A stretch of 64,000 bases of DNA from an uncultured Isosphaeraceae bacterium (GTDB lineage: Bacteria > Planctomycetota > Planctomycetia > Isosphaerales > Isosphaeraceae): positions 375,021 through 439,020 of the forward strand of contig CAWHUG010000001.1 in assembly GCA_963832405.1 (NCBI GenBank), read 5' to 3'. How positions within the stretch are numbered: position 1 is the first letter of the stretch; each line of letters opens with the position of its first letter. The position numbers and the translations under genes are program-made. Positions 1,622 to 59,405 of the stretch are shown one piece after another. Below the pieces are notes generated by a model. The model searched no databases. It worked only from the letters and a program-made list of their open reading frames with translations, and was not told the DNA's origin.

Positions 1622-1710
1622 GTAGGGTGGGTCAGCGGCGTCTGCTGCGCAACCCACCATCCGAATATGTCGGTGGGTTGCGCGGCGCAGACGCCGCTGA
1701 CCCACCCTAC
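1622..1710. repeat. Palindromic REP/MITE-like element, family C (GTAGGGTGGG...CCCACCCTAC termini around a nested GC stem)
   Basis: Long inverted repeat read directly from the sequence. Related copies at 2610, 30682 and 35878, a half-site at 4860-4880 and a variant at 10292. Confidence 0.8.
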
Positions 1711-1744
1711 AAGACGGGAAGTGACCCGTGGTGGAGTGTGCCCC

Positions 1745-2702
1745 ATGACCGTGTCCGGTCCCATCAGCGCCCTGTTATCGTCGATCGCTCTCGGGCTGGC
1801 CGTGGCGCTGGCCTTCGAGCCGGGCCTGCGGCTCTGGGACGAACTGGCGCTGCGGCGGGTGCGTGATTTCGTCACGCTCGGGCAATCGGTGGGGATCTCG
1901 GAAGAGCGCATCCGGTCCGGCATGCGGCTCTGGGGAATCCTTCTGGCGCTGTCACCGTGCGCGATCCTGTCGGTGTTCGGCTCGCTGGTGCTGGTGCCGA
2001 TCTGCGGCGGGCTGATCTATCAATCGCCCCGGTGGATTCTGCATTCGGTCATCCAGCGGCGTCGGCGGCGTTTGCGCGATCAGCTTGTCCCGGTCTGTTT
2101 CGCGCTGGCGAACACGGCGCGGGCCGGGCTCAGTCTCGCCCAGGGGTTGCGGCTGGCAAGCTGCGAGGCGCCGGAGCCGATCCGCGGCGAGATCCAGCGG
2201 ATCGTGCGGGAATACTCGCGCGGCCGCCCGCTGGCGCAGGCTATCGGCGATATCTCGGCGCGGCTCGACCTGAACGGCTTCCGCATGTTCGCCGCGGCGA
2301 CGCTCTGCTGCCTGGAGCACGGCGGCCCCTTGACCGAGACGCTCGACAGCCTGGCCCTGTCCGTGCAGGAGAACCAGCGGCTTCAGCTCAAGATGGACAC
2401 GCAGAGCGCCAGCGGACGGCTCACGCTGTGGTGCCTGGGTGTGTTCCCCGTCGTCTTCCTCCTGGTCAACTACCTCATCGAGCCGGTCTCGAGCCGGCTG
2501 ATGGTCACCACCATGCTGGGCCAGGTCTGCCTGACCACGATCATTCTGCTCACCTACTGGAGTGTCCGCATGGGCCTGCGGATCACGAGGTTTGAGAACA
2601 TCCTTTGGCGTAGGGTGGGCACCGCCCGCCATTCGAACCGGCGGCCACGGCGAAGAAGGTGGGCCATGCCCACCCTACAGAAGAGCCTCGACTCGCAAGT
2701 GA
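1745..2702 (+). CDS. tadB: Tad pilus inner-membrane protein TadB (T2SS-F domain), 3' end frame-disturbed
   Basis: TM-rich protein with the GspF/TadB-like core 'RGEIQRIVREYSRGRPLAQAIGDISARL'. The annotated frame reads through the family C palindrome at 2610-2678 and into tadC as far as 2947. A TGA at 2700-2702 in the -1 frame sits 15 nt before the tadC RBS and ATG, so I take that as the likely true stop. Confidence 0.7.
2610..2678. repeat. Family C palindromic element inserted at the tadB/tadC junction
   Basis: GTAGGGTGGGC...GCCCACCCTAC inverted repeat. Confidence 0.8.
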
Positions 2703-2717
2703 CAAGATCCCGGAGGA

Positions 2718-3689
2718 ATGGCCATGTACCCGGAGAGCGCGTCGGTCGCGACCACGCTGATGGCTCTCGAGCTGCTGGCCAGCGTGTTGCTGGGCCTGGG
2801 CGTGCTCGGCGTGGCCTGGCACATCACCGGGATCGTGCTGGCGGACCGGGGCGACGGGCGGCGGTGGGCGTCGTTCGAAACCGCGCGGCGGCAGACGCTG
2901 CGGCAGGCCAACCGGGTCTATCTCTGGTTCGAGCCGCTCGTCGATGAGCTGGCCGAGTACTACGCGACGCGCCGGCCGATGCTGCGGCAACGGATCGAGC
3001 GCGGCCTGCTGGCGCTGCCCGAGCAGCCGCCCTGGACGCCCGCGGAATGGCTGGCCGTGCAGCGGCTGACCGCCTCGGGCGGCATGATCGGCCTGGGCCT
3101 GGGCCTCGGCTGGTTGTGTCATTCCTGCCTCGGCATGCCCGCCCTCGGAATCCTGGGAGCGGCGCTCGTCTGGTTCATCACCTCGCGCCGACCGCTGCTG
3201 GAGCTCGAGGAAAAGGCCAACCGGGTCCGCTCGCAGATCCGCGGCCAGCTTCCGTTCGCCATGGATTTGATGCAACTGATGCTCAAGGCGGGATCGAGCT
3301 TCACCGAGGCCCTTCAGACCCTCGTGCGGCAGAACTGCGGCGCGGCCCTGGCCGGTCATCTGGAGATCGTCCTCCGCGAGATCGAGCGGGGGATCACGCG
3401 GTCCGAAGCACTCCGGCGGCTCCAGTTGCGCCTGAACATGGAAGAGATCAACGAGCTGGTCCTGGCCCTGCGCCAGGGGGACGAGCTGGGCACGCCGTTG
3501 ACGCAGATCCTCGAAAGCCAGGCCCTCCAGATCCGCAACCGGCAGGTGCAGGCGATCGAGAAGGCGGCCGAGCAATCGAAGGTCAAGTTCGCGGGTCCCA
3601 ACACGGTCGTCATGGTCGCCAGCATCATTGCCATGCTGGCCCCCTGGCTCCTCAAGGTGCTCTATGAAGCCACACCACTCTTCCATTGA
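2718..3689 (+). CDS. tadC: Tad pilus inner-membrane protein TadC (T2SS-F domain)
   Basis: GGAGG RBS then ATG. TM segments and a GspF-like 'LPFAMDLMQLMLKAGSSFTEAL' block. Follows tadB in the usual order. Confidence 0.85.
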   Translation: MAMYPESASVATTLMALELLASVLLGLGVLGVAWHITGIVLADRGDGRRWASFETARRQTLRQANRVYLWFEPLVDELAEYYATRRPMLRQRIERGLLALPEQPPWTPAEWLAVQRLTASGGMIGLGLGLGWLCHSCLGMPALGILGAALVWFITSRRPLLELEEKANRVRSQIRGQLPFAMDLMQLMLKAGSSFTEALQTLVRQNCGAALAGHLEIVLREIERGITRSEALRRLQLRLNMEEINELVLALRQGDELGTPLTQILESQALQIRNRQVQAIEKAAEQSKVKFAGPNTVVMVASIIAMLAPWLLKVLYEATPLFH

Positions 3690-4377: not shown

Positions 4378-4439
4378 TCCCCGGTTCCCGCCGTTCCAGA
4401 CCGTGGTCGACTGGATCGGGAACAACATTTGAAATTCTG

Positions 4440-4890
4440 TCCGGACAGCCCCGAAGGGGCGACAGTCAATAGCCAGGGGCGTCAGCCCCTGGACGGCGAG
4501 ACAAAGCCCCAAAGCGCCTCTCCGCAGGGGACTTTCTCAGCCGGGCGGACAAGTCCCGGACAGTTTCACTAGTGGACGTTCAGACAGTATCCAGGATGCA
4601 AAGGCTTGGGAACATTGGATTTGCTTCAGTGAACCCCTCGACCTTTGCCGCGTAAACTGTCCGCGCCGTTCAGGTGGTTGACCGCCGAGCGTGAGATAGT
4701 GCCCTCCGCAGCCCCTCAGGGGCGACAGAACCCATGGTTTCGCGGGATCTTCTGTCGCCCCTGCGGGGCTCCGGAAGAGGGTGGCGCGGGGACGGGACGG
4801 GTTCCAGGGGCTGACGCCCCTGGCTATTCACTTCCGCCCCTTCGGGGCTGAGAGGCGCGGACGCCGCTGACCCACCCTACGAAGCTACGA
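4440..4890. repeat. Composite palindromic element, family A (about 45-bp terminal inverted repeats AGCCAGGGGCGTCAGCCCCTGG / GCCCCGAAGGGGC, internal palindrome, about 200-bp lower-GC insert) plus a family C half-site at 4860-4880
   Basis: Termini at 4447-4492 and 4804-4850 are exact reverse complements. Compact copies of the same element lie at 27256-27493 and 59170-59405. Confidence 0.8.
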
Positions 4891-9841: not shown

Positions 9842-10289
9842 ACCGGATCGAGGGAATCAGGTCTCCATTGTCGGCGGCAAGGGCTATCGCCTGCCGACGG
9901 AGGCGGAGTGGGAATATGCCTGCCGCGCGGGGAGCACGGCAAAGTATCCGTTTGGAGAGGGCGAAGCCGATCTGGGTAAGTATGCCTGGTACGACAAGAA
10001 TTCGGAGGATAAGACGCATCCGGTGGGCCAGAAGCAGCCGAACGGCTGGGGCCTGCACGACATGCTCGGGAATGTCTGGGAATGGTGCCAGGACGGCTAT
10101 GCTACCGATTATTACAAAGCAGCGCCGCCGGCTGACCCGCCGGGCCCTGCCGAGGCCCCGTCCCGGGTGTTCCGGGGCGGTTGCTGGCGCGACGACCCGG
10201 GGTGCTGCCGCCCGGCGTACCGGCTCAGGAGCACGCCGGCGATCCGGTCCTACATTCTGGGCTTCCGCCTGGCCGCAGTCCAGGACTGA
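9842..10289 (+). pseudogene. C-terminal about 140-aa stump of an FGE-sulfatase domain, the remnant of the ECF-associated Ser/Thr kinase; +1 frameshift in a CCC run at 10019
   Basis: 'GYRLPTEAEWEYACRAGSTAKYPFGE' and 'PNGWGLHDMLGNVWEWCQDGY...RVFRGGCWRDDPGCCRPAYR' are canonical FGE/SUMF1 blocks. No kinase domain lies upstream. The open frame starts directly after a stop at 9812. Confidence 0.6.
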
Positions 10290-10291: not shown

Positions 10292-10365
10292 GTTGTAGTT
10301 GTAGGGTGCGTGAAACGCACCATGTCCCACATCGCTTTGGGATTGGTGCGTTCCACGCACCCTAC
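10292..10365. repeat. Palindromic element, family C variant (GTAGGGTGCGTG..CACGCACCCTAC), preceded by a GTTGTAG x2 tandem
   Basis: Inverted repeat read directly; it shares the GTAGGGTG/CACCCTAC termini with family C. Confidence 0.7.
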
Positions 10366-11924: not shown

Positions 11925-12062
11925 GCCCGCGCAAACGAACCCAATTCCCGGGCACCGAACGAACCCAATCACCCCTTGACTTTGTCCCGAAAACCAGGTG
12001 TCCCCCGTCACAATGGGCCTTTCCGGGTATTGCGTCGCTTCCCATGGCGACTTGAAAGCCAA
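11925..12062. repeat. Dispersed repeat (about 85-130 bp, 'AACGAACCCAAT' sub-repeats). A second copy in inverted orientation lies at 43420-43590.
   Basis: 11925-12010 matches the reverse complement of 43500-43590 at about 90% identity. The shared GTCGCCATGGGA motif extends the similarity. Confidence 0.6.
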
Positions 12063-18402: not shown

Positions 18403-18519
18403 GGCCGATGGAATGGATACCTGATACCTGATGACGGATGCGCGAGTCGATCATCCGTCATGCGTCATCAGGCATCGGTCTCCTTGGAAAGGCGGGACTC
18501 AAGGGATCGGCCCAACACG

Positions 18520-34990: not shown

Positions 34991-34998
34991 CTCTTTCC

Positions 34999-35865: not shown

Positions 35866-35877
35866 AGGACGGTATTT

Positions 35878-35939: not shown

Positions 35940-35957
35940 AACAGGGCGAGACCTTTT

Positions 35958-43419: not shown

Positions 43420-43590
43420 CGTGCATGGCTCTGATGTCGCCATGGGATGATGTCCTGTCGCCATGGGATGATGTCCGGTGGTCGGGAAAGACCGGTTGTA
43501 ACACGGGACACCTGGTTTCCGGGACAAAGTCAAGGGGCGATTGGGTTCGTTCGGCGCCCGGGAATTGGGTTCGCTCGGCGCAGCCATGGG
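43420..43590. repeat. Second, inverted copy of the 11925-12062 dispersed repeat, including a 21-bp direct tandem (TGTCGCCATGGGATGATGTCC x2)
   Basis: See 11925-12062. The tandem at 43432-43473 was read directly. Confidence 0.6.
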
Positions 43591-45377: not shown

Positions 45378-45393
45378 TCCGCGACGATCCGTT

Positions 45394-45455
45394 CGCACGC
45401 ACAAGGACCGCCCGCAGGCCGGCAAGGCTTGCGGGCGGTCGTTGTGCGTTGCGGT
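45394..45455 (+). terminator. Imperfect 22-24-bp GC-rich hairpin immediately after the CAP-domain gene stop
   Basis: CGCACGCACAAGGACCGCCCGCAG ... CTTGCGGGCGGTCGTTGTGCGTTGCG. No T-tract follows. Confidence 0.35.
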
Positions 45456-45719
45456 CGGTCACCAGTAAGCCGGCCAAGGAAACATAAGGTCCATTATCAG
45501 ACGATGCCGCGCCGTGTCTCCAGAGGGGAAACCTCGCGGTCCCCGTGCCCGGAGCGATGGCCAAGCCCCGCAGGACAGGTCACGCCGTCCCTGGTGTGCG
45601 GCTCGTTGACGTCGCCGTCCGGCTAACTGCGGGATGCTCTCGGCCGCGAATCGCCGGCCGCTGGCCCGCGTTCCTCCTGCGTATTGGCTTCGCCTCGTTT
45701 CCGAGCGGCCGCGCGAAAC

Positions 45720-45905
45720 GGCGGCCCTGGCGGTCCTTCACAATCGATGCGCCCCCGCGGAACACCGCGACCAGCCACGCAAGCAAGGGTGCATGCATAG
45801 AGTGCCGACGCGGAACTGGGTGGGTTGGCACCACCACATGACGTTGTCGCTGCTGGCGGCGTGGTTCTTGGTGGGCGAGACGCGGCGCGGGAAAAAAGCA
45901 GGCAC
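45720..45905 (+). mobile_element. C-terminal remnant (about 60 aa) of an IS701/IS4-like DDE transposase
   Basis: 'RNWVGWHHHMTLSLLAAWFLVGETRRGKK' matches the conserved 'RsW.GWhrH.tL..lAhaFL' tail of these transposases. No upstream DDE core was found. Confidence 0.4.
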
Positions 45906-46042
45906 CGGCCGTGACACTGCCCCAAGCCCGCGCCGGCCTGGCATTGACCTTTCGGAAAGCGTGCCGCTGCGATACCCAGGCCCGCAGTGCGCGGCAACGG
46001 ACGCGCTGGCTGGAGCGCAACGAACTGGCGCGGCTGTACCAC

Positions 46043-46137
46043 TATTACCCCGGCAAGAAAGTAGGTCGGACAATCCTGTCCGACAGGCCGGGGGAGTCGG
46101 ACAGGATTGTCCGACCTACTTTCTTGCCGGGGTAATA
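46043..46137. repeat. Palindromic MITE-like element, family D (TATTACCCCGGCAAGAAAGTAGGTCGGACAATCCTGTCCGAC | mirror)
   Basis: Near-perfect 42-bp arms. A second copy lies at 54327-54429. Confidence 0.85.
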
Positions 46138-46188
46138 CGAACGCTCCGCGCGCGGACTCAGGGCGGAATTGTACGCCGGGGACGATTC

Positions 46189-46807
46189 CTACCGGCGTGC
46201 CTCTTCCGGGGGGCCGTGTCGACGCCAATCTTCCCAGGTGTCGATGTCCCGCCGGACGGGCAACTGGCCGACGGACCAGCCGTGGGACTGCGCAGAGGGC
46301 CAGGTGAGCGGCGAGGGTGGACGGCGTGGACCACGGAATCTTCTCGAAGAAACTCGGAAGATCCCGGGCCGTCCCCACGAGGTAATACCCACCGTCTTCC
46401 GCCGGGCCGAAGACCGCATCCTTCTGCGCCAAGGTCTCGAACGCCGTGCGGACCAGAGGTGTCTCCAGCTCGAGGCAGTCCGTCCCCACCGCGACCACCG
46501 GCGCACCGACCGCGTGGGCCATCGCGAAACCAACGCGCAACCGCTCCCCGAGATCGCCCGCGGGCTGCCGCCACCAGTCGTCCGCCAGCGTCCGCCACGG
46601 CGCGAAGGCCGCTTCCGGGGCGCCGTCGAAGTACCCGACGACGCGGGTCGCATCCCGGAGCGGTTGGAGCTGGTGGAGCACCAATCCAATCCATTCCCGG
46701 TACAAGGCGGCCGCCCGCTCCGCGCCGAGGGACGCGGCCAGACGTGTCTTCACCGTCCCGGGGGACGGGTACTTCAGCAGGACGAGCAGGGTGGGCATTC
46801 CGGTCAC
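46189..46807 (-). CDS. DUF2064-family (TIGR04282-like, GT-A-like nucleotidyltransferase fold) protein; one frameshift near 46290
   Basis: 'MPTLLVLLKYPSPGTVKTRLA', 'GPAEDGGYYLVG' and the C-terminal 'LPVRRDIDTWEDW' (in the alternative frame 46189-46689). Confidence 0.7.
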
Positions 46808-46825
46808 TCCGCATTTCCGGGGCCG

Positions 46826-47862
46826 TCAGGGAACGACTGCGCCCTGGCAACCGGAGCCGGCGCCGGCCGTGCAGCCGTAGCAGTGCTGGCCCACCCGGAT
46901 CGGCCGGCTCCGGAGCGATTCCGCGAAATCCCCGATGTGCCGCGGCCAGCCGGGGGCGAGTGGCAGTTCGAGCATCTGGTTGAAGTCGCAGTCGGAGAGA
47001 TGACCGTCCCAGCCGACCGACAGGGTGGTCCGGCACATCAGGCCCGCGACCGTGGCCGGGTTGAACGCGGCGATCAGAGCCTCCATGTATTGATCGAAAG
47101 CGCCGGTCCGCACGAGATCGTCCAGGAACCGGCTGATGGGCATGTTGGCGATCGTGTGGAGACGGTTGAAGACGATCCCGTAGCGGGCCGCGAGTTCGCG
47201 CCGGTAATCGGCTTCGAGTGTGTCCTGTTTCGGCGGGAGCCGCGGTCCGGCCGGGTTGTAGACGAGCGTCAGATCGAGATCGCTCCCCGGCCAGCCATAT
47301 CCCACTTCGTTCAGCCGGCGCAGAGCCTCGATCGACCGCTCGAAGACGCCGTCGCCCCGCTGGGCGTCGGTATTGCCCGCCGTGTAGCACGGCAGCGACG
47401 CGACGATCTCCACCCGCTGCCCGGCCAAGAATGCGGGAAGGTCCTGATATCCCGGCGCGCACAGGATCGTCAGGTTGCACCGGTTGATGACGTGCGCGCC
47501 CAGACACCGGGCCTCGGCGACCAACCAGCGGAAGTGCGGGTGGAGCTCGGGGGCCCCGCCGGTGATGTCCACGCACGGAATCCGGCGCGCGAAACGGCCT
47601 CCAGGCAAAGCTGCATCGTCGCGCGGCTCATCGCCTCGCGGCGGTCCGGCCCCGCATCCACATGGCAATGGCGACAGGTCTGATTACACCTCTTGCCGAC
47701 GTTCATCTGGAGGATCTGGATGCCCGCGGCGCGCAGGGGATCGAGACTGTGCTCGGACAGGACCTGTCCGAAGGGCGCGTGCCGGTCCCGGGGAGCGAGG
47801 ATCTCGCGTTGCCGGGCGGCGTCCGAGAAGGGATGTCGCTGATGAAGGAGGCTCGATCCCAT
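46826..47862 (-). CDS. Radical SAM / Cys-rich domain protein of the ArsS-like family (TIGR04167-like); one frameshift near 47590
   Basis: 'GKRCNQTCRHCHV' (Cx3Cx2C), 'ITGGAPELHPHFRWLVAEARCLGAHVINRCNLTIL' and a C-terminal Cys-rich 'CYGCTAGAGSGCQG'. Confidence 0.75.
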
Positions 47863-47997
47863 TCCGTCTCCTCAAGAGGGCCTCATCGGGTGCGGGGTGG
47901 GAGTGCCATCCGGGCCTGGTTTGCCACCGGTCTCTCATGTTACCTTCGGTCGCGGGTTCCACACGAGAGGGCCGGGTCGAGGGGATGATACGAGATC

Positions 47998-48750
47998 ATG
48001 GAGAACACCCCGCACGAAGCGCGCAATCCCGCCGTGTCGATCGTGATCCCGACTCTCGACGAGGCGGACCGGCTCGGCGCGACCCTCGACGCGGTGGGAC
48101 GGTTGCGGACGGGGGTTGAAGTCGAAGTCCTTGTCGTCGACGGTGGGAGCCGCGACGAGACGATCGCGATTGCGGAGCAGCACGGCGCCACCGTCGTCGT
48201 CGCCGCGCGCGGTCGCGGAGCGCAGCTCCACGCTGGCGCCGGAACCGCGGAGGGCGCCGTGCTCTGGTTCCTCCACGCCGATACACATCCGCCCCTCGAT
48301 GGCATCGAACAGATTCTGGAGGCGCTCGAAGACCCGCGCGTGGTTGCCGGGAACTTCCGGCTGGCCTTCGACGGTGGCGGCCGGTCGGCGCGATTCCTCA
48401 CCTGGCTCTATCCCCGCCTGCGCTGGCTCGGGATTCGCTACGGCGATTCGGCTCTCTTCGTGCGCCGCGAGGTGTACGCTCGGGCGGGCGGATTCCGCCC
48501 GTTGCCGATCTTTGAGGACCTGGATCTGTTGCGGCGACTCCGCCGATCCGGGCGCTTCGTGTGTGTTCCGAGTACGGTTGTCACCTCCGCGCGGAATTTT
48601 GAGGGCCGGAGCTTCGCCGCGGTGTTCACGCGCTGGACAGCGCTCCAGATCCTCTTCTGGCTGGGCGTGCCGCCACGCGTCCTCGGCCGGTTCTACGGGC
48701 GGCGCGGCCGGAGATGGCGTCGGACGCCGCGGGTGGAGAGCGATGAGGGC
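47998..48750 (+). CDS. Family 2 glycosyltransferase (TIGR04283-like); 3' end uncertain
   Basis: 'VSIVIPTLDEADRL', 'VLVVDGGSRDETIAIA' and 'DSALFVRREVYARAGGF'. The annotated ORF continues as non-native sequence into the next gene. Confidence 0.7.
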
Positions 48751-48805
48751 CTGGACCGCCACGAAAATGGGCGTGGGCGTGAAATTGACCACAAGGAGCC
48801 TTGCC

Positions 48806-51353
48806 ATGAAGCGTCGCGTGTGCGTGTTTTCGATCGTGACCGCGCTGTGCGCACTCGGCGGCCCCGGCCGGGCCCTGGACCTGGCCGACATCCCCGCCGA
48901 CGCCCCCGACGACGCGATCATGGCCCCGCCGGCCGAGATCGCCGAGATGGCCGCGTGGGCCGGGAGTGGCTTCGAAAGCAAGCCGCCGCAGGCCGCGCCG
49001 GACCGGGTCACGCTTCAGGTCAAGCGGCAAGACCACAACGTCATGCGGCTCCGGCAGTCGATCATGGAGTCACCCATCCGCCTCCAGGGCCGCGCGTTCG
49101 CTCATGGTCTCGGCACGCACGCCAACAGCGAGATCGTCGTCGGCTTGCCCCGCGGCGCCCAAAGATTCAAAGCGATGGCCGGTCTCGACGACAATCCCGT
49201 GACCCGCAGCAGCGGCAAGGGCAGCGTGCAGTTCGTCGTGGAGATCGGCGGCAAGGAGGCGGTGCGCACGGCGACCTTGCACGTCGGCGACGAGCCCGTA
49301 GCGATCGATGTGCCGATCCCCGCGGGCACGTCGCAGATCGTCTTGAAAACCGATGCCACCGCCGACGGCACCGGCTGGGACCATGCCGACTGGGCCGATG
49401 CGCAGGTCCTTGCGGTTCAAGGCCGAACATGGTGGCTCGATCAGGGCGACTCCGGGCCGATCCTCGCTCCCGGGGGGCCACCGTTTTCGTTCGTCCTTGG
49501 CGGCAAGTCGTCGGCGCAACTCTTGAAGGACTGGCCGCGCACGGTTGAGAGCAAGCCGCTGCCGGGCAAGACCGTGCACCAGGTCGCGTGGACCGATCCT
49601 CACTCGGGCCTGCGCGTGGCGGCCGAGCTGGCGGTCTACACGCGCTATCCGGCGGCCGACTGGGTGTTGCGTTTCGAGAACACCGGCACAAACGACAGCG
49701 AGATCATCGCGGACATCCAGGCCCTGGATGTCTCGCTCCGGACCAGTCAGGCGGACCGCCCGGGTATGCTGCACACGCTGGCGGGCGACGATTGCAGCCC
49801 GCGGTCATTCGTGCCGCTGGACATGCCTCTCGCCGCGGGCAGCGCCCTTCACCTGGCGCCCAACGGCGGACGTCCGTCCAATGGCACGTTCCCGTTCTTC
49901 AATTTCGAGTATGATGGCCGCGGGCTGTTCGCGGCCATCGGCTGGTCCGGCCAGTGGGCGGCCGCACTCGAACGCGATCGGACCGGATCGACGCGGCTCC
50001 GCGCGGGCATGGAGCGGACCCACCTCCGGCTGCACCCGGGCGAGTCGATCCGGAGCCCGCGGATCCTCCTGATGTCCTGGCAGGGCGACCGGCAGGCCGC
50101 GCACAACCGTTTCCGGCGGCTGATCCTGTTCCACTACACGCCGCGGCAGGAGAACCGCCCGCTGGCCGTACCCATCTTCTGGCAGGGATACGACCGCTAC
50201 AACGCCCACCCGTCCTGGCCTACGGAAGCCGGCCAGCTTCATGCCGCCGCAGTGGCCGCCAAAGCGGGCTGCGAGTTCCTCTGGCTCGACGCCGCCTGGT
50301 TCACCGGCAACTTTCCGAATGGGGTCGGCAACTGGTTCTGCAAGCCCGCCGCGTTCCCGCACGGCCTCAAGCCGGTCAGCGATGCCTGCCACAAGCTGGG
50401 CATGAAGTTCATCGTCTGGTTCGAGCCCGAGCGGGTCGCCCCCGGCACGGCGATCGCGCGCGAGCATCCCGAGTTCGTCTCGGGAGGCACCAACGGCGGC
50501 CTGTTCAAGCTCGACGACCCGGCCGCCCGGCGCTGGCTGGCCGACCTGCTCATCGCGCGCATTCGAGATTTCGGCATGGACTGGTACCGCAATGACTTCA
50601 ACATGGACCCCCTGCCCTTCTGGCGGCAGAACGACCCGCCCGAGCGCCAGGGCATGACCGAGATCCGCTACGTCGAGGGGCACTACGCGCTCTGGGACGA
50701 GATCCGCGCGAGCCGTCCCGGCCTGTTCATCGACAACTGCGCCAGCGGCGGCCGGCGGATCGACCTGGAGACCATCCAGCGCTTCGATCGCCCTCTGGCG
50801 GAGCGACACGGCCTGCACCACGGGCCGCGGTGACTGGCACCAGTCGCAGGCGTTCGGCATGAACTTCTTCCTGCCGCTGCACGAGATCTGCGCCTGGACG
50901 CCTGACGCCTACGAGATGCGCAGCACCTCGGCCGGCGCGATCGTGCAGTACGATTTTCTGGCCCCGGGCTACGCTCCCGAAGCCGCCCGGCAAGCCATCG
51001 CCGAGGTCAAGGCAAACCAGAAGTATTTCTATGGCGATTTCTACCCTCTGACGGCCTGCTCGACCGCGCCCGACCAGTTCCTCGCCTACCAGATGCACCG
51101 GGCCGACCTCGACGCGGGGCTAGTGCTGGCCTTTCGCCGCGCACAGTGCAACACCCTGGCGCTCAGTGTGCCGCTCGGCGGTCTGAAGGCCGACGCCACG
51201 TACGAGGTCACGTTCCTCGACGAACACCGCCAGGCGACCGTCAAGATGATGACCGGCCGGATCATGGCGCACGACTTTCCCCTCATGATCCCGGAACGCG
51301 GGGCCAGCCTGCTGGTCCGTTATCATGAGGCCGGTCCGCGAAGCCCCCAGTGA
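48806..51353 (+). CDS. Secreted alpha-galactosidase (GH36) with an N-terminal NPCBM carbohydrate-binding module; one frameshift near 50830
   Basis: AAGGAG RBS and signal peptide 'MKRRVCVFSIVTALCALGG'. NPCBM-like 'RLQGRAFAHGLGTHANSEIVV'. GH36 'FIVWFEPERV' and 'FIDNCASGGRRIDLE'. The C-terminus is in ORF 50859-51353. Confidence 0.8.
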
Positions 51354-51609
51354 GTGAGGAATGGACCGCCAGCGCGGCGGGGTGGCCGGGTCAAGAACGA
51401 GTGGAAAAGAAGAGACTGTAGCAAGGCGATCGGGACCCGTCTGGCCAGCGGTTGGCTCGGTGCCGTGTGGGACAGCCGCCCCCGGCTGTTCTGATCCGGG
51501 ACAGGGACAGCCGGGGGCGGCTATCCCACATTCGGCTGATTCCGATCCACCCGGCCACCCGTTCGCTGGAACTCACGCCAGAATTCCTGTGTGGCGTGCC
51601 GGGGACTCC

Positions 51610-53395
51610 TCAATGCCCCGGCGCGTCGATTCCCTCTCCCGCAGAGAGAGCCGAAACGGCGCGTTGCGTCTTGGGTATGCTCCGGGACGTGGTGTTGGCC
51701 GCAATGCCTGCGACCCGTACCGCCGTTTCGGGACCGTCGGGCGAGTTCGTTTCGAAGAATGTCGGCGGCTCATAGGTCCAACCGTTCCGCAAGCGTTGCT
51801 CCTCCGACCGCAAGGCTTCTTCGAGGGAGGGACCGACGATCGCCGCGGCCAAGCGGGCGCGCCGACCGAACTCGGCATACAGTTCGTCCTGGACTTCGGA
51901 GATCAAGCGCGACTGATGGGGATCGTCCTGGTATCGGCGCTGGGCGGCCCAGAGCGCCCCCGCATACCCAACGGCGAGAGGGGAGGCCTCATGCGCGAAG
52001 CGATCGCGGATGCGCGGATTGGAGTGGTCCTTGTACGACTTCCAACCGCGCAGCAGCGTGCGGATGATGCGGACGACACTCGGGCCGTTGACCGCGAAGT
52101 CCCGCTCGAACGCGCGCAGCAGGAACTCGCCTTCCTGCCCCTCCCGGATATGAGGGTGCCGGAAATTGAACTTCAGTTGTCCGTGAATGTCCGCCACCGG
52201 TAGTTCGGCCACGCCCAGCAGCGTGCCCTTGGCCTCCTCCGCGGAGTAAAGCGGAGTTCCCGGGATCGGCGTGTAGAGCATGAACTGATGAAAATCCGAG
52301 TTATGGGCGACCGCGTGATCGATGACTTCATCGATGTTCCCGGGCGTGTGCTCCTTGAGGCCGATGATACTGGAACCGAGCACGTGGATGCCGTGGCGTT
52401 GCAGGGCGCACCCGTTGGATCGTGTCGGTCCGCGCAGCTTCGCATACTGGGCGTCCTTTCCCTCCAAGCCCATCCAGACCCACGTCACGCCGAGTGCGAC
52501 CAGTTGCTCGATGGTGTACTGCTGGAGCACGTCCACGGAGCTGAAGACCTTCAGGTGCCACGGCTTGCCGTGCTCCTCCATCAGTCGAAGCAGACGGAGC
52601 GTACGCTCCTTGTTGATCAAGAAGTTCTCGTCCATGACGAAGAAGCCGCGGACGCCCAGGTCCGACTCCAACGCGCACATGATCTCGAACAGTTCGTCGC
52701 CGGTCCGGTAGAACTCGATGTGTTTTCCCTTGCCGCCGAACAGGGCCGACGTGGAGCAGAAATTGCAGCCCTTCGGACATCCCACGGACGGAATGAGCGT
52801 CGCTTCGTCCAACCCGGGGTGGTCGTGAAGGGACACACCCATGATCCGTGACGAAAGGTACGTGATGCTCCGGGGATGAAGAACCGGTTGGTTCTCATCC
52901 TCTCCCAGGAACCTGCGCATCCAGCGCACGCCTTCTCCCTGAACGACATGGTCCACGTTGGCGCATCGTGTCAAGTCCGGCACGTTCGCGATGTGTCCAC
53001 CGACGACGATCGTGGCCTTCGGCTGGTGCTTGCGGATCAGGCGGCACATCCTCCGCACCTTGAACAGGTTCGACATGATCGAACTGATGCCGATGATGTC
53101 GTATTCCCTCGTCCTGAGTTCCTCGACGAACCTCTCTTCCGAGGGAAAGTCGAGCAGCGTGCAGGGGGCCTCGATGTTCACCTGGATGAGCATCAGGCCC
53201 CAGGACCGATGAAAGGCGCGCAGCGAGAAGGCGTGCTGGACCCGTGTCACCTGATTGTGATAGAGCTCCATCGGGTTGATCAGGCGACTGCCGTACGGAT
53301 CATCACTGCGCAAACGGGCCGAAGACGCTGGTCAGCAGCACGCGCGCTCGCGAGCCGAGCGGATGGGCGGGATGGTGGACAGCAGGTTCGGTCAC
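51610..53395 (-). CDS. B12-binding-domain radical SAM enzyme (class B); the N-terminal 30 codons sit in another frame (GTG at 53395)
   Basis: B12-binding 'YDIIGISSIM...KATIVVGGHIA'. rSAM 'GCPKGCNFC'. Recovered N-terminus 'RVLLTSVFGPFAQ'. A lower-GC promoter-like tract at 53400-53500 sits upstream. Confidence 0.8.
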
Positions 53396-54043
53396 GGCTT
53401 TTCCTCTTGCATGCAAATTACCAACTCCCACCAGGCCGTCTTCTTGCCGTCATCTTCATAAAATACACCTGAGAAGACAATAGACACATCAGACAATGCC
53501 GACCGTCGGAGTTCTCCGTGGCACCGCGAACGAAGCGACTTGCGGTCGATATCCGTCGTCACCCCGGGCAACGGTTCGGCCCGGTCGATCGTCGCGGTCG
53601 CCGCCGACGAATGGCACGATCACCCTGACACGGCGCATCTTTCCTATCCTTTCCTTTTTCCCGCCATGCGCAGCAACTCTCTCTAGTATCGGCTCACCGT
53701 CGAGGTTATTCCAGTTCAGGCGAACGCCACAGGCGTCGTCATGATCAGCGGGATGTCCATCTTCCCGGGCGCCCACGTCGTGGTTACCCGAAATCCCGTC
53801 TTCTCGTCCAGGAGGGATCGGATGGCCGTGCGGCAGCCCCAAGGGATTCAACGCCGCATTCTGGGCCAGGGTTTCGTGGGTACAGGTGTTCCCGTGCGGG
53901 GCACGCCCAGGTTTTCCCGCGTAATCCTTCCACCGGCCCTGTTCGCGGCGAATTACTGATCGCTGCGAGGACGTGACCGCGGTGTCTTGGCGGGCCGGCG
54001 TCGCCGACGAGAGTTGGGGCTGCGGCGTCTCGCCGGCGATTAG

Positions 54044-54322
54044 GACAACGACGGGCATGTCGATCTTTATGTCACCAATTTCGGGCCGAATCGGCTCTAC
54101 CGGAACCGGGGGGATGGCACTTTCGAGCAAGTGGCCGAACGGACCGGCGTCGCGGATCCCGGCTGGAGCACCTGCGCCAGCTTCTTCGATGCCGACGGCG
54201 ACGGTGACCTCGACCTGTATGTCGCACATTACGTTCGGGCCTCGATGGACGACGTCGATGTTGAAGCGCTCCGCCTGGGAGCCGAACATCGCGAAGCCGT
54301 CGTGGTGCTTGGAGGTGATCAC
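54044..54322 (+). pseudogene. Fragment of an ASPIC/UnbV-type FG-GAP repeat protein: in-frame TAG inside the conserved GDYDNDG motif, a 1-nt deletion, and truncation by the family D MITE
   Basis: '[63 protein letters not shown]' preceded by 'GD' then TAG (54041-54043). The frame then runs into element D2 and stops inside it. Confidence 0.5.
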
Positions 54323-54326
54323 CAGA

Positions 54327-54429
54327 TATTACCCCGGCAAGAAAGTAGGTCGGACAATCCTGTCCGACTCCCCCGGCCTGTCGGACAGGATTGTCCGACC
54401 TACAGGAGATCTTCTTTGCCGGGGTAATA
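54327..54429. repeat. Family D palindromic MITE-like element (copy 2)
   Basis: Same arms as 46043-46137. Confidence 0.85.
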
Positions 54430-54835
54430 CTTCATGCCCGCGTCCTGCGCCAGTTCGCCCTGCCTCGGCGTCGAACTTCACCGGGTTGAGATGACGCGGA
54501 TCGCGGACCACCACCTGGCCTGGGCGCAGGGCTTCGTGGACAGCGCGGTGCCCGGAGTGGTTCGCAACAAGTGGCTCGAACGCCGGCACCAGCTCCACCA
54601 CGTCGCGCGGGCACCGCGACCGCAGTCCCGAGTTCCAGACGGCCTTCATGAACGGCACGGGCACGATGGTCTGGGACAACGTGTTCGGTAGCTGGGTCGG
54701 CTTTCGGGGCGAAGTGTCTGTTGACCTGGGCCGGACTGGATCGCTGCGCCACCGTCGGCTTCCGCTACGTCGTGGATTTGAAAGGCTAGAGCGACTTCAC
54801 GGATGCGTTGGGCACAGGAGTGGCTCCCCCCTCAC

Positions 54836-55022
54836 CCGCCTGCTGCGCAGGCGACCTCTCCCGCGAGGGGAGAGGTGGGACGAACCGGCCGTCCGAACAC
54901 CTCTCCCCTGGCGGGAGAGGTCGGGTGGCATGCCCACGTCTGCGTGGGCATGGTCCCCCGCGCCGGGGCGCGCCGACATGCCCACGCAGACGTGGGCATG
55001 CCACCCGGACACAAGGGGTTGC
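54836..55022. repeat. Family E cluster of nested palindromes (CTCTCCCGCGAGGGGAGAGG, CTCTCCCCTGGCGGGAGAGG, CATGCCCACGTCTGCGTGGGCATG x2)
   Basis: Four hairpins in 190 bp, read directly. Intergenic. Confidence 0.7.
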
Positions 55023-55072
55023 GGCTCCGCCGCGCAACGAAAACAGGCCCAGGAGACGCGCGACACGTACAC

Positions 55073-57640
55073 TTATTCCGCCACGTCACCGAGGCCGACG
55101 TCGATGCCCTGGCCGCCTTCTGTTTGGTGACAATGAACGGCGACCAGGATCTTGCGCCGGGTTTCATCGCGGCACGCGCTTCGCGCGAGATTTCCAGCGG
55201 CACATAGCTCGTCGTGAAACCCCCTTCCGTCGCGGCCGGGATGCCGTTGACGTAAATCTCCACATCCTCGTCGTGATAGCACGATGAATTGGAGATTGGG
55301 ATGCGCTCCCTCGGGGATCGTGATCTCGCCGCGCAGCCAGATGTCGTCGGTCTTCCATTCCGATGTGCTGGACGAATCCCGGCGGACGCGTGCCGAAACC
55401 GGCGCGGCCTTCCTTCCAACCCGTCATGTCGAAATCGGTCTTCGTCCAGTTGTCCGCGGGTTTCCGCGTCGTGTAGTGCCACGTCTGCTGGGTGGGCACG
55501 ACCATGCTGGTTTTCGGCGGCGTGGGCAGCGGCGACCAGTTCGCGGGCTTCAGGTGATCGCGGGAGGCCCACTTCTTCCAGGTCGCGCGGTCGGTCAGCA
55601 TCTTGATGAAGAATCCGCCGACAACCGGCCGGGCGTGCATGCCGCCGCTCTGGACCTTGTCGGTCACATACGAATCGGCGATCGGATCACGCGCGGTCGT
55701 TTCGTTCAGGTAGTCGTAGATCGGCGCGATGATGGCTTCGAAGTCAGACGGCTTCTCCGCCAGCGTCGCGCTCCAGAACGACCAGTCGGTCTTCGTCAAG
55801 TGCGTGCGCGAATCGAGCGGCACGCCGTAGCGCAGCATCACGTTCTTATAGTGCGCGACTTCCTTCCGCGCGACGGACGGCGGGAAGACGTTCAAGCCGA
55901 GGATGCGGTCCCAGACGAGGTTGTATTTCTGGCTCCAGGTTCCCGGCTTGTCGAACGCGAGCCGGTAATGATCCCCCTCGGCGGCGACCTTCATCCAGTG
56001 CTCCGCGTCGGCTTTCGCCAGGCCGGCGTACTTCTTCGCGGTGTCCTCATCGCCGCGCATCCGGCACAGATCGCCGTAGGCCGCGAGGCCGAGGATCGCC
56101 TTCACGGAGAGATTCGCGTTGTGCGCGAGATGGCCCATGAAATCGTCCGTGCAAAGCTGCTCCTCAGGGTCCAGGCCGTACTTTTCCAGGTACTTCGCCC
56201 ACTGCGTGAGCGCCGGCCACCAGGGCGCGACAAAGTCCGCGTTGCCTTCCGCGTGCGCGATGGCGTCGCAGAGGATCAACATGTTGCCGCTCTCCTCCAC
56301 GGGCATGCCCTCGCCGCCGTCATCGCGGCCGGTGACGATCGGATACGTCCCCAGATCGTGCGGCGCGTTGGGGAATTTCCAGTGCGGTGATTCGGAGTAC
56401 ATGAGCACATGAACCAGTGATGCCTTCGCCAGGGTCGGACTGAGCAGGATCCAGATCGGGTCCATGGGGAAGAACACGTCCACCGTCGCGATATCACCGT
56501 TGCTGGTGTTTTCCTTCGTGAAGAACAGCGGCTGCTTGTTCGCATCGGCGGCGAGGCCGTTCGCGGCGACGCATTCGCGGTAGGAGAGCGCGGTGATCTT
56601 CGCATATTTCTCGCCACCGAGCCTGGTCATGTCCGCCATCAACTCGTTGTCGAACGCCTCGCATCGCGCGAGCAGCTTCGCGTAGTCCTGCGACGCGGTC
56701 TGCAAGAGTCCGGCGATCTTCACGCCGTTCCGCGCCCAGTAGGGGAGCAGCTTCTGGCCGAAATACTTGATCGCGAAGATCTCGTCGTACGCGACGATCA
56801 CCTGCCGCTCGACGGCTTGTCCGCCGACGCTGCCCAGCGCGAACGCGAATGCCATCACGGGCTCGGCGTCGCTGGCCGCGCGGGGCATGCGCGCATCGTC
56901 GGCCGCGGGCAGGCCGCCGTTCTCGGCGAACGTGTTCTCCAGAACCGCGCTGGCGCCGATCGCGGATGTCGATTGCCCGCGCGGCGCAGCGGCGTAGGCG
57001 TAGCCCCAGTTGATGCGGTGATCGTCGCCACTGGAGCCGAGAACACTCTGCGCTTGCGTGCCGCGCGCAAGAGCGTCAAATCGCCGGCCGTTTGCCGCGA
57101 CCACTCGACAAGCTCCGTGGTCTTGTTCACGGCAAGTTGCGAGCTCGTGCTGTCATAGAGTTCAATCTTGTGCTTCGCGCCGTCGCACGAGCGGACATTC
57201 CAGGTGATGTAGCTCAGCGGCCACGAATAAACGTCGAGATCGTCGGGCAGCGCGGGCTGCATGAAGGTCATCGTCACGTGGACGCCCGCGTCCTCGAACT
57301 CGTAGATGCTGCGTGTCGGCAAGACCACGACGGACTTCTGCGTGAAGGCCGGCGCCGTTTTCGGTTCCACGCCCATCAGCCGGTACGTCTTCCCGTCGAT
57401 GCGGATCAGGCTCACGAGCGCATGGTCGTGCCGTGTCCAGTGCTTCGTGGTCGCGTCGTTCAGATGGTCGGCTTCCGACCAGATGCTGAGGAACGGATTG
57501 TACGTGACGAGGGGAACCGCGGGCGGTCGGAAATCGGCCCGTGCCGAGAACGCGATCCCCAGGCTGCTGGCAAGCAGTGCGAGGACAAGCCGCGCGGCGC
57601 AGTCTTGGAGATTCTTCTCATCGAGGGACTCCTTGGCATG
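55073..57640 (-). CDS. Secreted glutaminase-A-like (GtaA; DUF4964/DUF5127/DUF4965/DUF1793) six-hairpin glycosidase-like protein with a C-terminal beta-sandwich; at least 3 frameshifts
   Basis: N-terminus 'VPLVTYNPFLSIWSEADHLND...WTRHDH'. Core 'FFPMDPIWILLSP'. C-terminal 'KILVAVHCHQTEGGQGIDVGL'. Signal peptide 'LVLALLASSLGIAFSARA'. Confidence 0.7.
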
Positions 57641-57760
57641 GACATCGGATCGGTCGAGGCACAGTCAGACGCAACGTTCGTGGTCGGGCGATCCCGGCTC
57701 AATAAACTAGCACAGAACGTTCCCCAGTTCACGCCCTGAGAGGATGTACGAGAAGGGGTC

Positions 57761-57837
57761 TTCTGTGTAGTGGCGGCCGTCGCGGCCGCTCCGGGTTCCC
57801 GAACCGGAGCGGCCGCGACGGCCGCCACTACACAGAA
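57761..57837. repeat. Perfect 32-34-bp-stem hairpin (CTGTGTAGTGGCGGCCGTCGCGGCCGCTCCGG / loop GTTCCCGAA / mirror) between the P450 and GtaA-like genes
   Basis: The reverse complement was checked base by base. Possible terminator or insulator, or another palindromic element. Confidence 0.7.
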
Positions 57838-57894
57838 AGGCCCCTCTGTACCGAACGACACGAAGAAACGGAACCGGGGGATCGAGGAAGCCGG

Positions 57895-58909
57895 CTACGC
57901 AGTCGAGGGAAGAGAGTCGAGCGGCTCGCGTCGCAGCACCACCGGAAGCGATGCCGGCGCTCGGATCGCGAATCCGCCGATCCACTCCACCTCGCCGACC
58001 AGTTCGACCGCGCTCGTCATGCTGAGCAGCGCGTCCGTCGCGACCGCGACCGCCATGCGGATCAACGGCGCACCGGGACAGGAGTGCGCTCCTCCGCCGA
58101 ACGCCAGGTGCCCCGCGGCGTCGCGGCGGACGTCGAGCCGGCCGGGCTCCGGAAACCGCGCCGGGTCGTGGTTGGCCGCCGAGAGCATCAGGATGACGCG
58201 ATCGCCCGGGGCGACGCGCGCGCGGCCGATCGACAGTCTCGGCGAGCGCGTGCCGGAAGACCGCGCGGGCGGGGCCGGCGTGACGCAACAGCTCTTCGAC
58301 CGCCCCGGGCATCAGTTCGGGCTGCGCTGCGCAAGCGGTCGGCCTCATCCGGACGCCGGAACAGCTCGAGCCACGCGCTGGCGAGGAAGCACGGCAGCGT
58401 CTGCGAGAGCGCGACGTAGGTTTGCACATCGGCGGACGCACCCGCACCCGGAAAGCGACTCGCCAGCTCCGCGACCGCGGCCTGCGCCCGCGGCGGAAAT
58501 CCGGCATCCGTCGCACGAGGCCGCCGCCAGGAACACGTCTCGAGCGAGCCGGTCGAGTCGTTCCGCGTCCGCGGGCGGGGCGCCGGTCGCTCGGACCGCG
58601 AGCGTGACCGACCAGGGCCGGGCGAACGCCCCCACCAGGTCCACGGGCACGCCCGCGGGCAGACGCTCGGTCAGGACGCGGGCGGACGCCTCGGCCTCGG
58701 CGCGCCAGGCGGCCAGCCGTGCCGGCGGACAGCGCGTGCGCGGCCGCGTCGCGCACCGCGACGTGCGCCGCATCCCCGTCGGCGCTCGTGCCCGAGACCG
58801 ACAATCGCGGGTCGCGCAGGGCGGCGGAAACGTCCGCGTAGCGGGTCAGGACCCAGGCGCCGAGCGCGGAATCGAATCGCGCCTCGCCGGGCTGATCGGC
58901 CTCATCCAT
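57895..58909 (-). CDS. Cytochrome P450; at least 3 frameshifts
   Basis: Heme-binding loop 'FGGGAHSCPGAPLIRMA' (57895-58188). N-terminus 'FDSALGAWVLTRYADVSAALRDPRLS'. The middle segment is in ORF 58345-58773. Confidence 0.7.
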
Positions 58910-59169
58910 GGTCGTGCACCGAGATCACCAGACAGTCCTCCAGCTTCCCGCGATTCTGGCCTGTCCTTCTCGCCCACGTGTGGCCTCTCATCGAACGCGG
59001 GCGATCCCGTCCTGCCGCCGGCGTCGATGGCGTCGCCGCCCTCAAGACGGGCGGCGTCCGAACTGGCGATCCATCAGCCGTAGCATCCAGTCACGGTGCG
59101 ATCGGATGTATTCGTCGAACGCCTCGGGGGGGCGGCCGTCGTGACGGCCCACGAAGCGGTTCTTTAGAG

Positions 59170-59405
59170 TCTGTTCCAAAAGCCCCGAAGGGGCGAAAGT
59201 GAATAGCCCGGGGCGTCAGCCCCGGGAACCGGAAACGACGCGCTACAAGCCCTCTCCGAAGCCCGAAGGGGCGGCCGATGTCTTTGTCCCACAGGCCCTT
59301 CTGTCGCCCCTTCGGGGCTTCGGAGGAAGACTCTCTCGTCGCAGCTTTCCGGTTCCCGGGGCTGACGCCCCGGGCTATTCACTTTCGCCCCTTCGGGGCT
59401 TTTGG
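59170..59405. repeat. Family A palindromic MITE-like element (copy 3)
   Basis: GCCCCGAAGGGGCG...ATAGCCCGGGGCGTCAGCCCCGGG mirrored, with an internal GGGGCGACAG-type palindrome. Confidence 0.85.

Follow-up and report, generated by a model that had tools for sequence, protein, structure and literature searches.

Hairpin-forming repeats of an Isosphaeraceae chromosome as probable small mobile elements, and the association of the Acido-Lenti-1 motif with Y1 transposase genes

Hairpin-forming repeats of the window

What are the short palindromes that crowd part of an Isosphaeraceae chromosome, and how did they come to lie there? The question is raised by a 64,000-nucleotide stretch of DNA from an uncultured Isosphaeraceae bacterium (contig CAWHUG010000001.1 of assembly GCA_963832405.1, positions 375,021 to 439,020), here called the window, which contains at least seven families of short hairpin-forming DNA repeats (A to G). 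These are probably several unrelated families of small non-autonomous mobile palindromic elements that have accumulated mostly downstream of genes. In kind they are ordinary, being repeats of the repetitive extragenic palindromic (REP) type and of the type of MITEs (miniature transposable elements with inverted repeats), not a new kind of system. What the present analysis adds to a preliminary description of the same DNA is insertion evidence, a link between the Acido-Lenti-1 motif and Y1 transposases, and a two-layer design of families A and D, in which a REP core lies inside terminal inverted repeats (TIRs) with a target duplication.

The dense nested palindromic repeats of that description are real. 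Fourteen sites of the window have perfect stems (at least 14 bp, with a loop no longer than 120 nt), whereas 30 dinucleotide shuffles gave 0.1 such sites on average and never more than 1, and a repeat finder recovers all of the named families at the positions first reported or a few bases off. Among the five families proposed there, A to D are indeed repeated, whereas E is a single copy in the window with none in 230 fetched loci; the elements added here are a third, B-like hairpin (18416-18480), a palindrome at 57751-57847, element G within the first copy of family A, and a plain hairpin at 51474-51522. The elements compared with MITEs are 91-263 bp in size, have no open reading frame (ORF) inside, and number three copies for A, two for D and one each for G and E, these being counts within 64 kb only. 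The earlier statement that all are intergenic or at gene 3' ends holds for most, but A2 as well as D2 lies inside coding sequence. The intergenic copies are found only between convergent or co-directional genes, with none in the window's divergent, promoter-bearing gaps, which fits the behaviour published for REPs (Di Nocera et al. 2013, PMC3733652).

Insertion of families A, D and G

Family A is a five-hairpin palindrome of about 250 bp, consisting of an arm, a spacer, a central hairpin, a spacer and a mirror-image arm. The arm comprises a GCCCC-GAA-GGGGC hairpin, an 8-nt linker, TAG and a CC(A/C)GGGGC-GTCA-GCCCC(T/G)GG hairpin, and the central hairpin is two more GCCCC/GGGGC hairpins in inverted orientation; the inner hairpin is preceded by NTAG (ATAG in 53%, GTAG in 29%). 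The GCCCC-UUCG-GGGC tetraloop first proposed for this family gives way to a 5-bp GCCCC/GGGGC stem with a 3-nt loop, which is supported by covariation. The termini, GAG(T/G)CTG.TCC.../...GGA.CAG.CTC, are inverted and extend over 14-25 nt. All six arms in the window match the Rfam model of Acido-Lenti-1 (RF01687, gathering cut-off 37 bits) over its full length (positions 1-46 of 46) at 48.2-58.5 bits, with one match per strand in each element:

4431-4850: A1, a composite copy with a degenerate left terminus (GAAATTCTGTCCGGAC) and no right outer terminus, carrying a nested 176-bp element
4447-4492, minus strand: A1 left arm, RF01687 match, 56.1 bits
4804-4849, plus strand: A1 right arm, RF01687 match, 55.2 bits
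27249-27511: A2, within the coding sequence of a Big_3_5 protein (Ig-like repeats), with TTA at 27246-27248 and 27512-27514
27265-27310, minus strand: A2 left arm, RF01687 match, 52.6 bits
27441-27486, plus strand: A2 right arm, RF01687 match, 48.2 bits
59167-59414: A3, with 70-nt arms that are 100% complementary, termini GAGTCTGTTCC/GGAACAGACTC, and TTA at 59164-59166 and 59415-59417
59181-59226, minus strand: A3 left arm, RF01687 match, 58.5 bits
59355-59400, plus strand: A3 right arm, RF01687 match, 58.5 bits

Copy A2 interrupts the second Ig-like repeat of the Big_3_5 protein. Its excision (27249-27514, the element and one TTA) joins ...AVYGGNTTY to AGSTSGSLTQTIQ, and the restored junction is the sequence of the neighbouring paralogous Ig-like repeat (...AVYGGNTTYAGSTSVNLTQTV); the Big_3_5 match covers profile positions 21-87 of 88 (69.6 bits) without A2, but stops at position 74 (56.7 bits) with it. 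Identical trinucleotides flank all four intact A elements, namely TTA (A2), TTA (A3), TCA (locus L090) and TGA (locus L058), the last two loci being from the same other Planctomycetota genome (metagenome-assembled genome (MAG) MFD02579.bin.2.36). TNA lies directly outside 13 of the 16 family A-type termini, and among the fetched loci two further planctomycete lineages have these termini as well. Because the flanking trinucleotides are identical within a copy but variable between copies, they are not part of an end encoded by the element, but a true target duplication of 3 bp.

Family D and the element at 57751 (F) are smaller:

46045-46135: D1, an 18-nt outer TIR (TTACCCCGGCAAGAAA) around a GTAG hairpin dimer (GTAGGTCGGACAATCCTGTCCGAC), with TA at 46043-44 and 46136-37
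54329-54427: D2, in the opposite orientation, splitting a GH29 fucosidase gene (pseudogene), with TA at 54327-28 and 54428-29
57751-57847: F, a 97-bp palindrome with 44-nt arms, its core a GTAG-tagged hairpin dimer (GTAGTGGCGGCCGTCGCGGCCGC), with GTAC on both sides

Family D has a two-layer design, a GTAG hairpin dimer (core GTAG-GTCGGACA-ATCC-TGTCCGAC) inside outer TIRs (TTACCCCGGCAAGAAA/TTTCTTGCCGGGGTAA), and the central 11 nt are inverted between D1 and D2. The 57751 element, with the hairpin GTAG-T-GGCGGCCG-TCG-CGGCCGC, probably has the same design. That D2 disrupts a gene, as had been noticed, is borne out: it splits the coding sequence of a GH29 alpha-L-fucosidase, which continues in one frame when D2 and one TA are removed, the match to profile positions 101-138 of Alpha_L_fucos across the repaired junction rising to 45.3 bits from 21.5; the rest of the gene is decayed. 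The TA duplication of family D fits IS630- or IS427-type enzymes, the target duplication of IS427 being 2 bp (PMC3281130), and, judged from two copies, insertion into T^A without duplication is possible.

Element G is nested in A1:

4528-4703: G, 176 bp, its TIRs imperfect and some 22 nt long (GGGACTTTCTCA.../...TGAGATAGTGCC)

An 8-bp direct repeat (CTCCGCAG) borders it at 4520-4527 and 4704-4711, and A1 without G is colinear with A2 and A3. Removal that restores a reading frame, together with an exact duplication, is direct evidence of transposition for A2 and D2, and the insertion evidence is direct for three families, A, D and G. The proposal that some of the repeats are non-autonomous transposable elements is thereby upheld for these three, which have TIRs and target-site duplications.

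Family A arms and Y1 transposase genes in other genomes

The arms of family A are RF01687, and family A corresponds to a unit of a Y1 transposase (HUH, IS200-like, of the subclass 1.2 type) with its gene deleted. Acido-Lenti-1 was described as a likely small RNA (sRNA) of Acidobacteria and Lentisphaerae, with no function assigned, that on occasion lies close to group II introns (Weinberg et al. 2010, PMC2864571), and according to a 2026 preprint little is still known of it. In the published seed alignment, Lentisphaera already has the motif in tandem and inverted arrays, and two copies are from Rhodopirellula.

For a search of other genomes, an arm covariance model was built from the published seed and the arms of the window. 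The inner-hairpin core of family A is present in at least 102 genome stretches (one genome per species scanned), the hosts being, among the matches listed, Planctomycetota of all classes, Acidobacteriota (Thermoanaerobaculia), Verrucomicrobiota, Bacteroidia, Ignavibacteria and others. The arm model identifies 191 arms in 99 of the 100 loci searched, and the minus-plus layout of the window recurs in 54 of 80 adjacent arm pairs, mostly with a gap of 80-130 nt. Nine motif-selected loci have a Y1 gene, some 150 codons long, at or between the arms, with the two inner hairpins immediately on either side of it. The encoded proteins match Pfam Y1_Tnp (PF01797, E = 1e-22 to 4e-27) and the NCBIfam IS200/IS605 transposase model NF033573, both above their cut-offs; they possess DHVHLV or DHIHLL (HUH), WQ, a conserved C-terminal tail, and the motif Y---Q--HH (YVANQEQHH, YVNGQQAHH, YIQTQEVHH, YIQTQQEHH). 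TnpA-Y1 subclass 1.2 has the combination of DH[VI]H, WQ and Y---Q--HH as its signature (Quentin et al. 2018, PMC6006769).

The association also holds in reverse. All seven loci fetched by Y1 homology alone, which comprise six distinct units (one recovered twice) in five genomes (two units in one Isosphaeraceae MAG, one each in Blastopirellula marina and Rhodopirellula islandica, and two others), show arm-model matches flanking the gene. The matches are strong on both sides in two units (Blastopirellula marina, 57 and 60 bits; L224, 34 and 41 bits), and weak or partial in the other four (8.7-37 bits for the arm next to the gene). At locus L086 a gene-bearing unit stands beside a gene-less unit with the same ends; since gene-bearing and gene-less units share the same arms, family A has the layout of a Y1 unit minus its gene.

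The Y1 unit with Acido-Lenti-1 arms in Blastopirellula marina (L226, 1240-1330) lies between a gatA-like amidase gene and gatB, and is preceded by GTAG-tagged hairpins (GTAGGGTCCGCTATGCGGACC) resembling family C, so that the two repeat types coexist in other planctomycetes too.

A separate observation concerns Centralia_MAG_412, a short-read Isosphaeraceae MAG in which an arm lies within about 210 nt of the contig start in six of seven fetched loci (L013, L026, L030, L044, L066, L094). The family A repeat evidently breaks this assembly, and is probably very abundant there.

Other assignments of these sequences were rejected. A3 gives a full-length match to Rfam Dictyoglomi-1, which at 38.9 bits against a cut-off of 150, with low posterior probabilities, is a generic long-hairpin fit; the mir-671 and isrG matches of A3 were likewise set aside as generic hairpin fits, and a viral origin of the arm motif was discarded, a single viral contig carrying it.

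Family C REP dimers

Family C is a classical GTAG-tagged REP dimer, similar to a REPIN (a REP doublet that forms a hairpin), of the form GTAG-G-GTGGGC-nnn-GCCCAC-C, spacer, hairpin and CTAC. The window contains five dimers and one half copy (5.5 copies):

1622-1710: C dimer of the long variant, GTAG-tagged (GTAGGGTGGGT...ACCCACCCTAC), its inner hairpin extended, between the genes of the T2SSE ATPase and TadB
2610-2678: C dimer, at the 3' end of the tadB-like gene, read through by ORF 1667-2947
4851-4880: C half copy, of the long-variant type (...GACGCCGCTGACCCACCCTAC), directly adjoining A1's right arm, 89% identical to 1675-1710
10301-10365: C variant dimer (GTAGGGTGCGTG...CACGCACCCTAC), 11 nt past the stop of ORF 10023-10289
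30682-30746: C dimer, between the convergent genes 30070-30609 (plus strand) and DUF493 30778-31374 (minus strand)
35878-35940: C dimer, 18 nt downstream of the ABC-F stop (35958, minus strand)

The positions first given for this family were correct to within a few bases, except that the copy placed at 10292 starts at 10301, 9 nt later. The reported read-through by tadB is true in a mechanical sense, ORF 1667-2947 being open across the dimer at 2610-2678. A GTAG-tagged REP is an imperfect palindrome of 20-40 nt with GTAG unpaired at one end, and a REP dimer or REPIN is by definition an inverted pair of GTAG-tagged hairpins (PMC3733652); such pairs are present in family C, in D's core and in the 57751 element, as anticipated by the comparison with REPs and bacterial interspersed mosaic elements in the preliminary description, and GTAG REP dimers have been reported in Planctomycetes (Di Nocera et al. 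2013, PMC3733652).

The half-site of family C is found in at least 120 metagenome stretches, on contigs of 34-71% G+C, and the metagenome loci include 45 dimers with unrelated spacers of about 10-50 nt and no duplication. Families C, B and E have no TIR distinct from their own hairpins, and C has no target duplication. Family C would be abundant if 5.5 copies per 64 kb is typical of the genome, and may be presumed to have been spread by a REP-associated Y1 transposase encoded elsewhere. Among the 103 motif-selected and 120 metagenome loci, no copy of C appears besides those selected by its pattern.

Families B and E

The remaining hairpins are as follows:

29283-29378: B1, a period-7 repeat hairpin (GATTCCA.../...GGAATCT), between the convergent stops of a CNNM/CorC gene and a low-molecular-weight phosphatase gene
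34799-34990: B2, a heptad-repeat hairpin, its stem some 75 bp long (-150 kcal/mol), between an SPFH gene (stop at 34782) and a minus-strand coding region
18416-18480: B-like hairpin (GATACCT GATACCT GATGACG ...), between MoxR ATPase and FHA genes
54852-55007: E, a single-copy cluster of two long nested hairpins (GACCTCTCCC..., GGGTGGCATGCCCACG...)

The arms of family B consist of degenerate tandem 7-nt units (GATTCCA, GATGCCA, GATGACT) with a constant GAT (GATnnCn), mirrored in the other arm. To our knowledge, no described repeat class resembles this family, which cannot be classified within known repeat classes. E is a hairpin cluster, not a demonstrated family.

Enzymes that may have moved the elements

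Several points weigh against reading the repeats as mobile elements, and against Y1 as their present source of mobility. There are no transposase genes of any kind in the window (gene map; tblastn with Y1 proteins also negative). The REP-associated tyrosine transposase (RAYT) envisaged in the preliminary description exists for family A in other genomes, but not in the window; the autonomous insertion sequence (IS) with matching ends envisaged alongside it does not appear, none with GAGTCTGTTCC termini being present in the window or 230 loci. IS200/IS605-type Y1 enzymes (IS608 and ISDra2 biochemistry) insert as a single strand and leave no target duplication, a mode that conflicts with Y1 as the active enzyme here. 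The Y1-bearing units inspected, including the two from the Isosphaeraceae MAG, are without GAGTCTGTTCC termini, and the link between Y1 and the window copies is therefore by descent, not as current mobilisation. Next to family C, no Y1 gene is found in 660 kb of metagenome loci searched with a hidden Markov model of five Y1 proteins against six-frame ORFs, the one Y1 gene detected being 1.7 kb from a REP; RAYTs are usually single-copy, so this result from a small sample is not informative. No copies of B, D, E or G occur outside the window among the 103 motif-selected and 120 metagenome loci. For E and G, what suggests mobility is structure or one duplication.

The 3-bp duplication indicates that the last moves of family A were made by an enzyme that cuts its target with a 3-nt stagger. 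The ends of family A begin GAGTCTG or GAGGCTG, and GAG ends with a 3-bp TNA duplication are features that we take to be those of the IS1031 group of the IS5 family. The mobiliser would most likely be a DDE transposase of the IS5 family (IS1031 type), supplied in trans, and the Y1-derived palindrome would then sit, in Isosphaeraceae-like lineages, inside a second layer of 14-25-nt TIRs with the 3-bp TNA duplication.

Two 2.2-kb elements with GAGTCTGTTCC ends were considered as autonomous IS and rejected, as they are family A copies carrying foreign insertions. One (L090, 713-2930) contains a nested IS4-like IS of about 2 kb with ends TGACGCCCTCGTTGTAC, and the other (L058, 5129-7411) a nested element of about 2 kb with ends GACGCCCCCAACAATGTTGC that encodes a 575-aa large serine recombinase. 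Each insertion lies at the GGGGCGTCA loop of a family A arm hairpin, or right beside it, and the ends of both read ...GGGCGTCA; this mimicry of the arm loop suggests elements that target these hairpins.

It is unlikely that the Y1 (HUH) enzyme itself moves family A, acting on both strands at a TNA target to give the 3-bp duplication with no DDE enzyme. In favour, the element's core is of Y1 descent, the fetched loci yielded no DDE partner, and TNA is symmetric, reading TNA on both strands. Y1 units too, such as that of Blastopirellula marina, carry 15-30 nt of inverted sequence beyond the outer hairpin, by which terminal extensions would belong to Y1 units, and the flank GACAAGACTG of L224 weakly resembles GGAACAGACTC. 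Against this, established IS200/IS605 transposition is single-stranded and duplicates nothing, none of the inspected Y1 units has GAGTCTGTTCC termini or a recognisable duplication (the latter looked for around the units of Blastopirellula marina, L099, L224 and L225), and in lineages with elements ending at the outer hairpin there is no duplication. In its boldest form, the insertion of palindromes by Y1 with a 3-bp TNA duplication would, if true, be a new mode of HUH transposition.

The joint proposition that Acido-Lenti-1 is the DNA hairpin module of Y1 subclass 1.2, and that the gene-less palindrome and GTAG dimers such as D gained DDE-type termini in Isosphaeraceae-like planctomycetes, is offered tentatively, as a possibility with the balance somewhat against it. 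If true, it would make these elements hybrid "REP-core MITEs" open to mobilisation by two unrelated systems. The Y1 clade of subclass 1.2, widespread and little studied, was previously thought to be without terminal structures, and Acido-Lenti-1 may be its recognised module.

Other explanations of the repeats

An improbable account is that the repeats are bidirectional terminators or stabilisers of mRNA 3' ends selected by the host, their repetition being due to selection and not to transposition. Their placement would suit it: B1, B2 and the C dimer at 30682 are exactly between convergent stop codons, and most other elements are just downstream of a stop codon. In both directions the D hairpin with CTACTTTCTT after it has a terminator-like score, TTTT follows the outer GCCCC hairpins on both strands in A3 only, and a role of REPs at RNA 3' ends is a published hypothesis (PMC3733652). 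Terminator-like sites, however, are not above the level of shuffles (3 versus 5.2 in 26000-37000; 9 versus 8.3 in 45000-60000), and a consensus scan flags only the D hairpins, leaving A, B and C unflagged. Two copies disrupt coding sequences and one element is nested in another, which are outcomes of insertion. A role in RNA 3'-end stabilisation or termination, if real, would be secondary, and would leave the origin of the elements unexplained.

The class to which Rfam assigns the family A arms supplies another account, that they are genes of small structured RNAs and the repeats multiple sRNA loci rather than mobile DNA, which is very unlikely. The six matches exceed the Rfam gathering score, both stems show strong covariation, and it was on covariation grounds that the motif was rated a likely RNA (Weinberg et al. 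2010, PMC2864571). Yet the matches are always inverted pairs on opposite strands of one palindrome, one copy interrupts a coding sequence and is bordered by a target duplication, many genomes have Y1 transposase genes flanked by the arms, and the original seed alignment already shows tandem and inverted arrays. The covariation itself is of a kind expected of a DNA palindrome and unusual for RNA. Across 150 arms, from loci selected by a pattern in which most of the first stem is fixed but pair 3/18 and the whole second stem are free, 98.9% of cells are standard pairs, with 179 double-sided changes and 2 G-U among 1791 cells; pair 3/18 is A-T in 52 arms, T-A in 42, G-C in 22 and C-G in 21. Wobble pairs are common in RNA, and so few of them, with so many double-sided changes, point to constraint on the pairing of a DNA palindrome on either strand, which is not RNA-like. 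From these comparisons, Acido-Lenti-1 looks like mobile DNA and not an sRNA.

Many of the Lentisphaera seed sequences, read on the Rfam strand, have an A.C mismatch as pair four of the first stem (CCUAGC...GCCAGG), which on the opposite strand would be a G.U pair; the annotated strand may therefore be wrong, if any RNA is made.

That the palindromes are artefacts of long-read metagenome sequencing or assembly is hardly conceivable: frameshifted genes (CNNM, Big_3_5, GcvP, GH123) do suggest probable indel errors in the assembly, but the same layout recurs in independent assemblies made with different technologies (at least 102 genome stretches for the A arms and at least 120 metagenome contigs for C, which also answers the concern that the elements might be unique to this locus), and the copies differ by compensatory substitutions.

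With the repeats read as mobile elements, they matter for annotation, since they create pseudogenes (the Ig-repeat protein and the fucosidase) and extend ORFs (tadB). They probably break short-read assemblies, and Rfam-based pipelines now label them as sRNA genes. A named "orphan" RNA motif is tied to a Y1 clade across Planctomycetota, Acidobacteriota, Verrucomicrobiota and other phyla, and the packaging of REP-type dimers in elements with TIRs and duplications bears on how REPs and REPINs move.

Gene setting and other repeats of the window

The window has a G+C content of 67%. In the gene map, made by ORF selection guided by G+C at third codon positions and by Pfam, the genes are those of an ordinary chromosome: a Tad pilus operon, a Ser/Thr kinase, a PAS histidine kinase, panC, lgt, a MoxR ATPase, the glycine cleavage system, SPFH proteins, ABC-F, UvrC, phosphoglucomutase and several glycoside hydrolases. 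The nearest named relatives of the ABC-F protein are from Isosphaeraceae (Planctomycetota), the closest non-identical protein being 76% identical.

Five genes are split between frames: CNNM/CorC (27932-29274), a GcvP subunit (20556-22027), GcvT (25368-25763/24518-25420), the Big_3_5 protein (26148-27290) and a GH123-like protein (59462-63245). They are either the result of indel errors in the long-read assembly or real pseudogenes, and they affect every ORF-based statement on the window.

A hairpin unrelated to the repeat families lies between convergent genes:

51474-51522: plain GC-rich hairpin with a 16-bp stem (AGCCGCCCCCGGCTG...CAGCCGGGGGCGGCT)

An 89-nt non-palindromic sequence containing TTGACTTTGTCCCGAAAACCAGGTGTCCC is present twice in opposite orientations with 90% identity (11936-12024 and 43485-43573), both copies being in long intergenic gaps, and a perfect 21-nt tandem duplication (43435-43476) adjoins the second copy. 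Judging by its sequence and position, this inverted pair could be a shared regulatory site or an sRNA.

Comparison with known systems

REP dimers, or REPINs, and their RAYTs (Bertels and Rainey 2011, PMC3116915; PMC3733652) are the nearest parallel to family C, to D's core and to the 57751 element, which resemble them in their short GC-rich hairpins with an unpaired GTAG, inverted dimers, variable spacers and intergenic position, occasionally inside genes. The window's elements differ in that no RAYT gene flanked by these REPs is present in the window or in 660 kb of metagenome loci, and their stems (GGTGGGC...GCCCACC, GTCGGACA...) differ from the published consensus of those named REP families that could be compared. 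Plain REPINs are without outer TIRs or a TA duplication, and D has both; REP dimers embedded in longer palindromes have also been described (PMC3733652), and the design of D matches these.

The arms of family A resemble RF01687 over the full 46-position model, including both hairpins, the CUGACG loop and the GGCUA linker. They differ from the motif as described in their planctomycete host, in always being the two arms of one DNA palindrome, and in their target duplications, association with Y1 and DNA-like pairing.

REPtrons and TIRtrons consist of a Y1 gene between inverted repeats (Di Nocera 2013, PMC3733652), and with TnpA-Y1 subclass 1.2 (PMC6006769) they share the arm-flanked Y1 genes of about 150 aa and the inverted flanking repeats seen here; the literature searched does not state that their repeats are identical with Acido-Lenti-1. 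As with REPtrons, gene-less copies outnumber genes, with 191 arms to 9 genes. The arm-flanked Y1 genes of the present set are in Planctomycetota, Acidobacteriota and Verrucomicrobiota, with elaborate double hairpins on both sides, and none is in the window.

Classical MITEs (Correia/NEMIS of Neisseria; IS5- and IS630-derived) are matched by families A, D and G in size (90-260 bp), lack of coding capacity, TIRs, target duplications (TNA, TA and 8 bp, respectively) and insertion into genes and each other. Unlike them, the interiors of A and D are REP-type hairpin dimers and not remnants of DDE IS, and no parent IS was found.

Palindrome-associated transposable elements (PATEs) of IS200/IS605 are comparable to family A as gene-less Y1 derivatives that keep subterminal hairpins. 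The ends of PATEs, however, are not inverted copies of each other and no duplication is made, whereas family A is a true palindrome with perfectly inverted ends and a 3-bp duplication; on account of that duplication and those ends, family A is not to be filed as an IS200/IS605 PATE despite its Y1-derived core.

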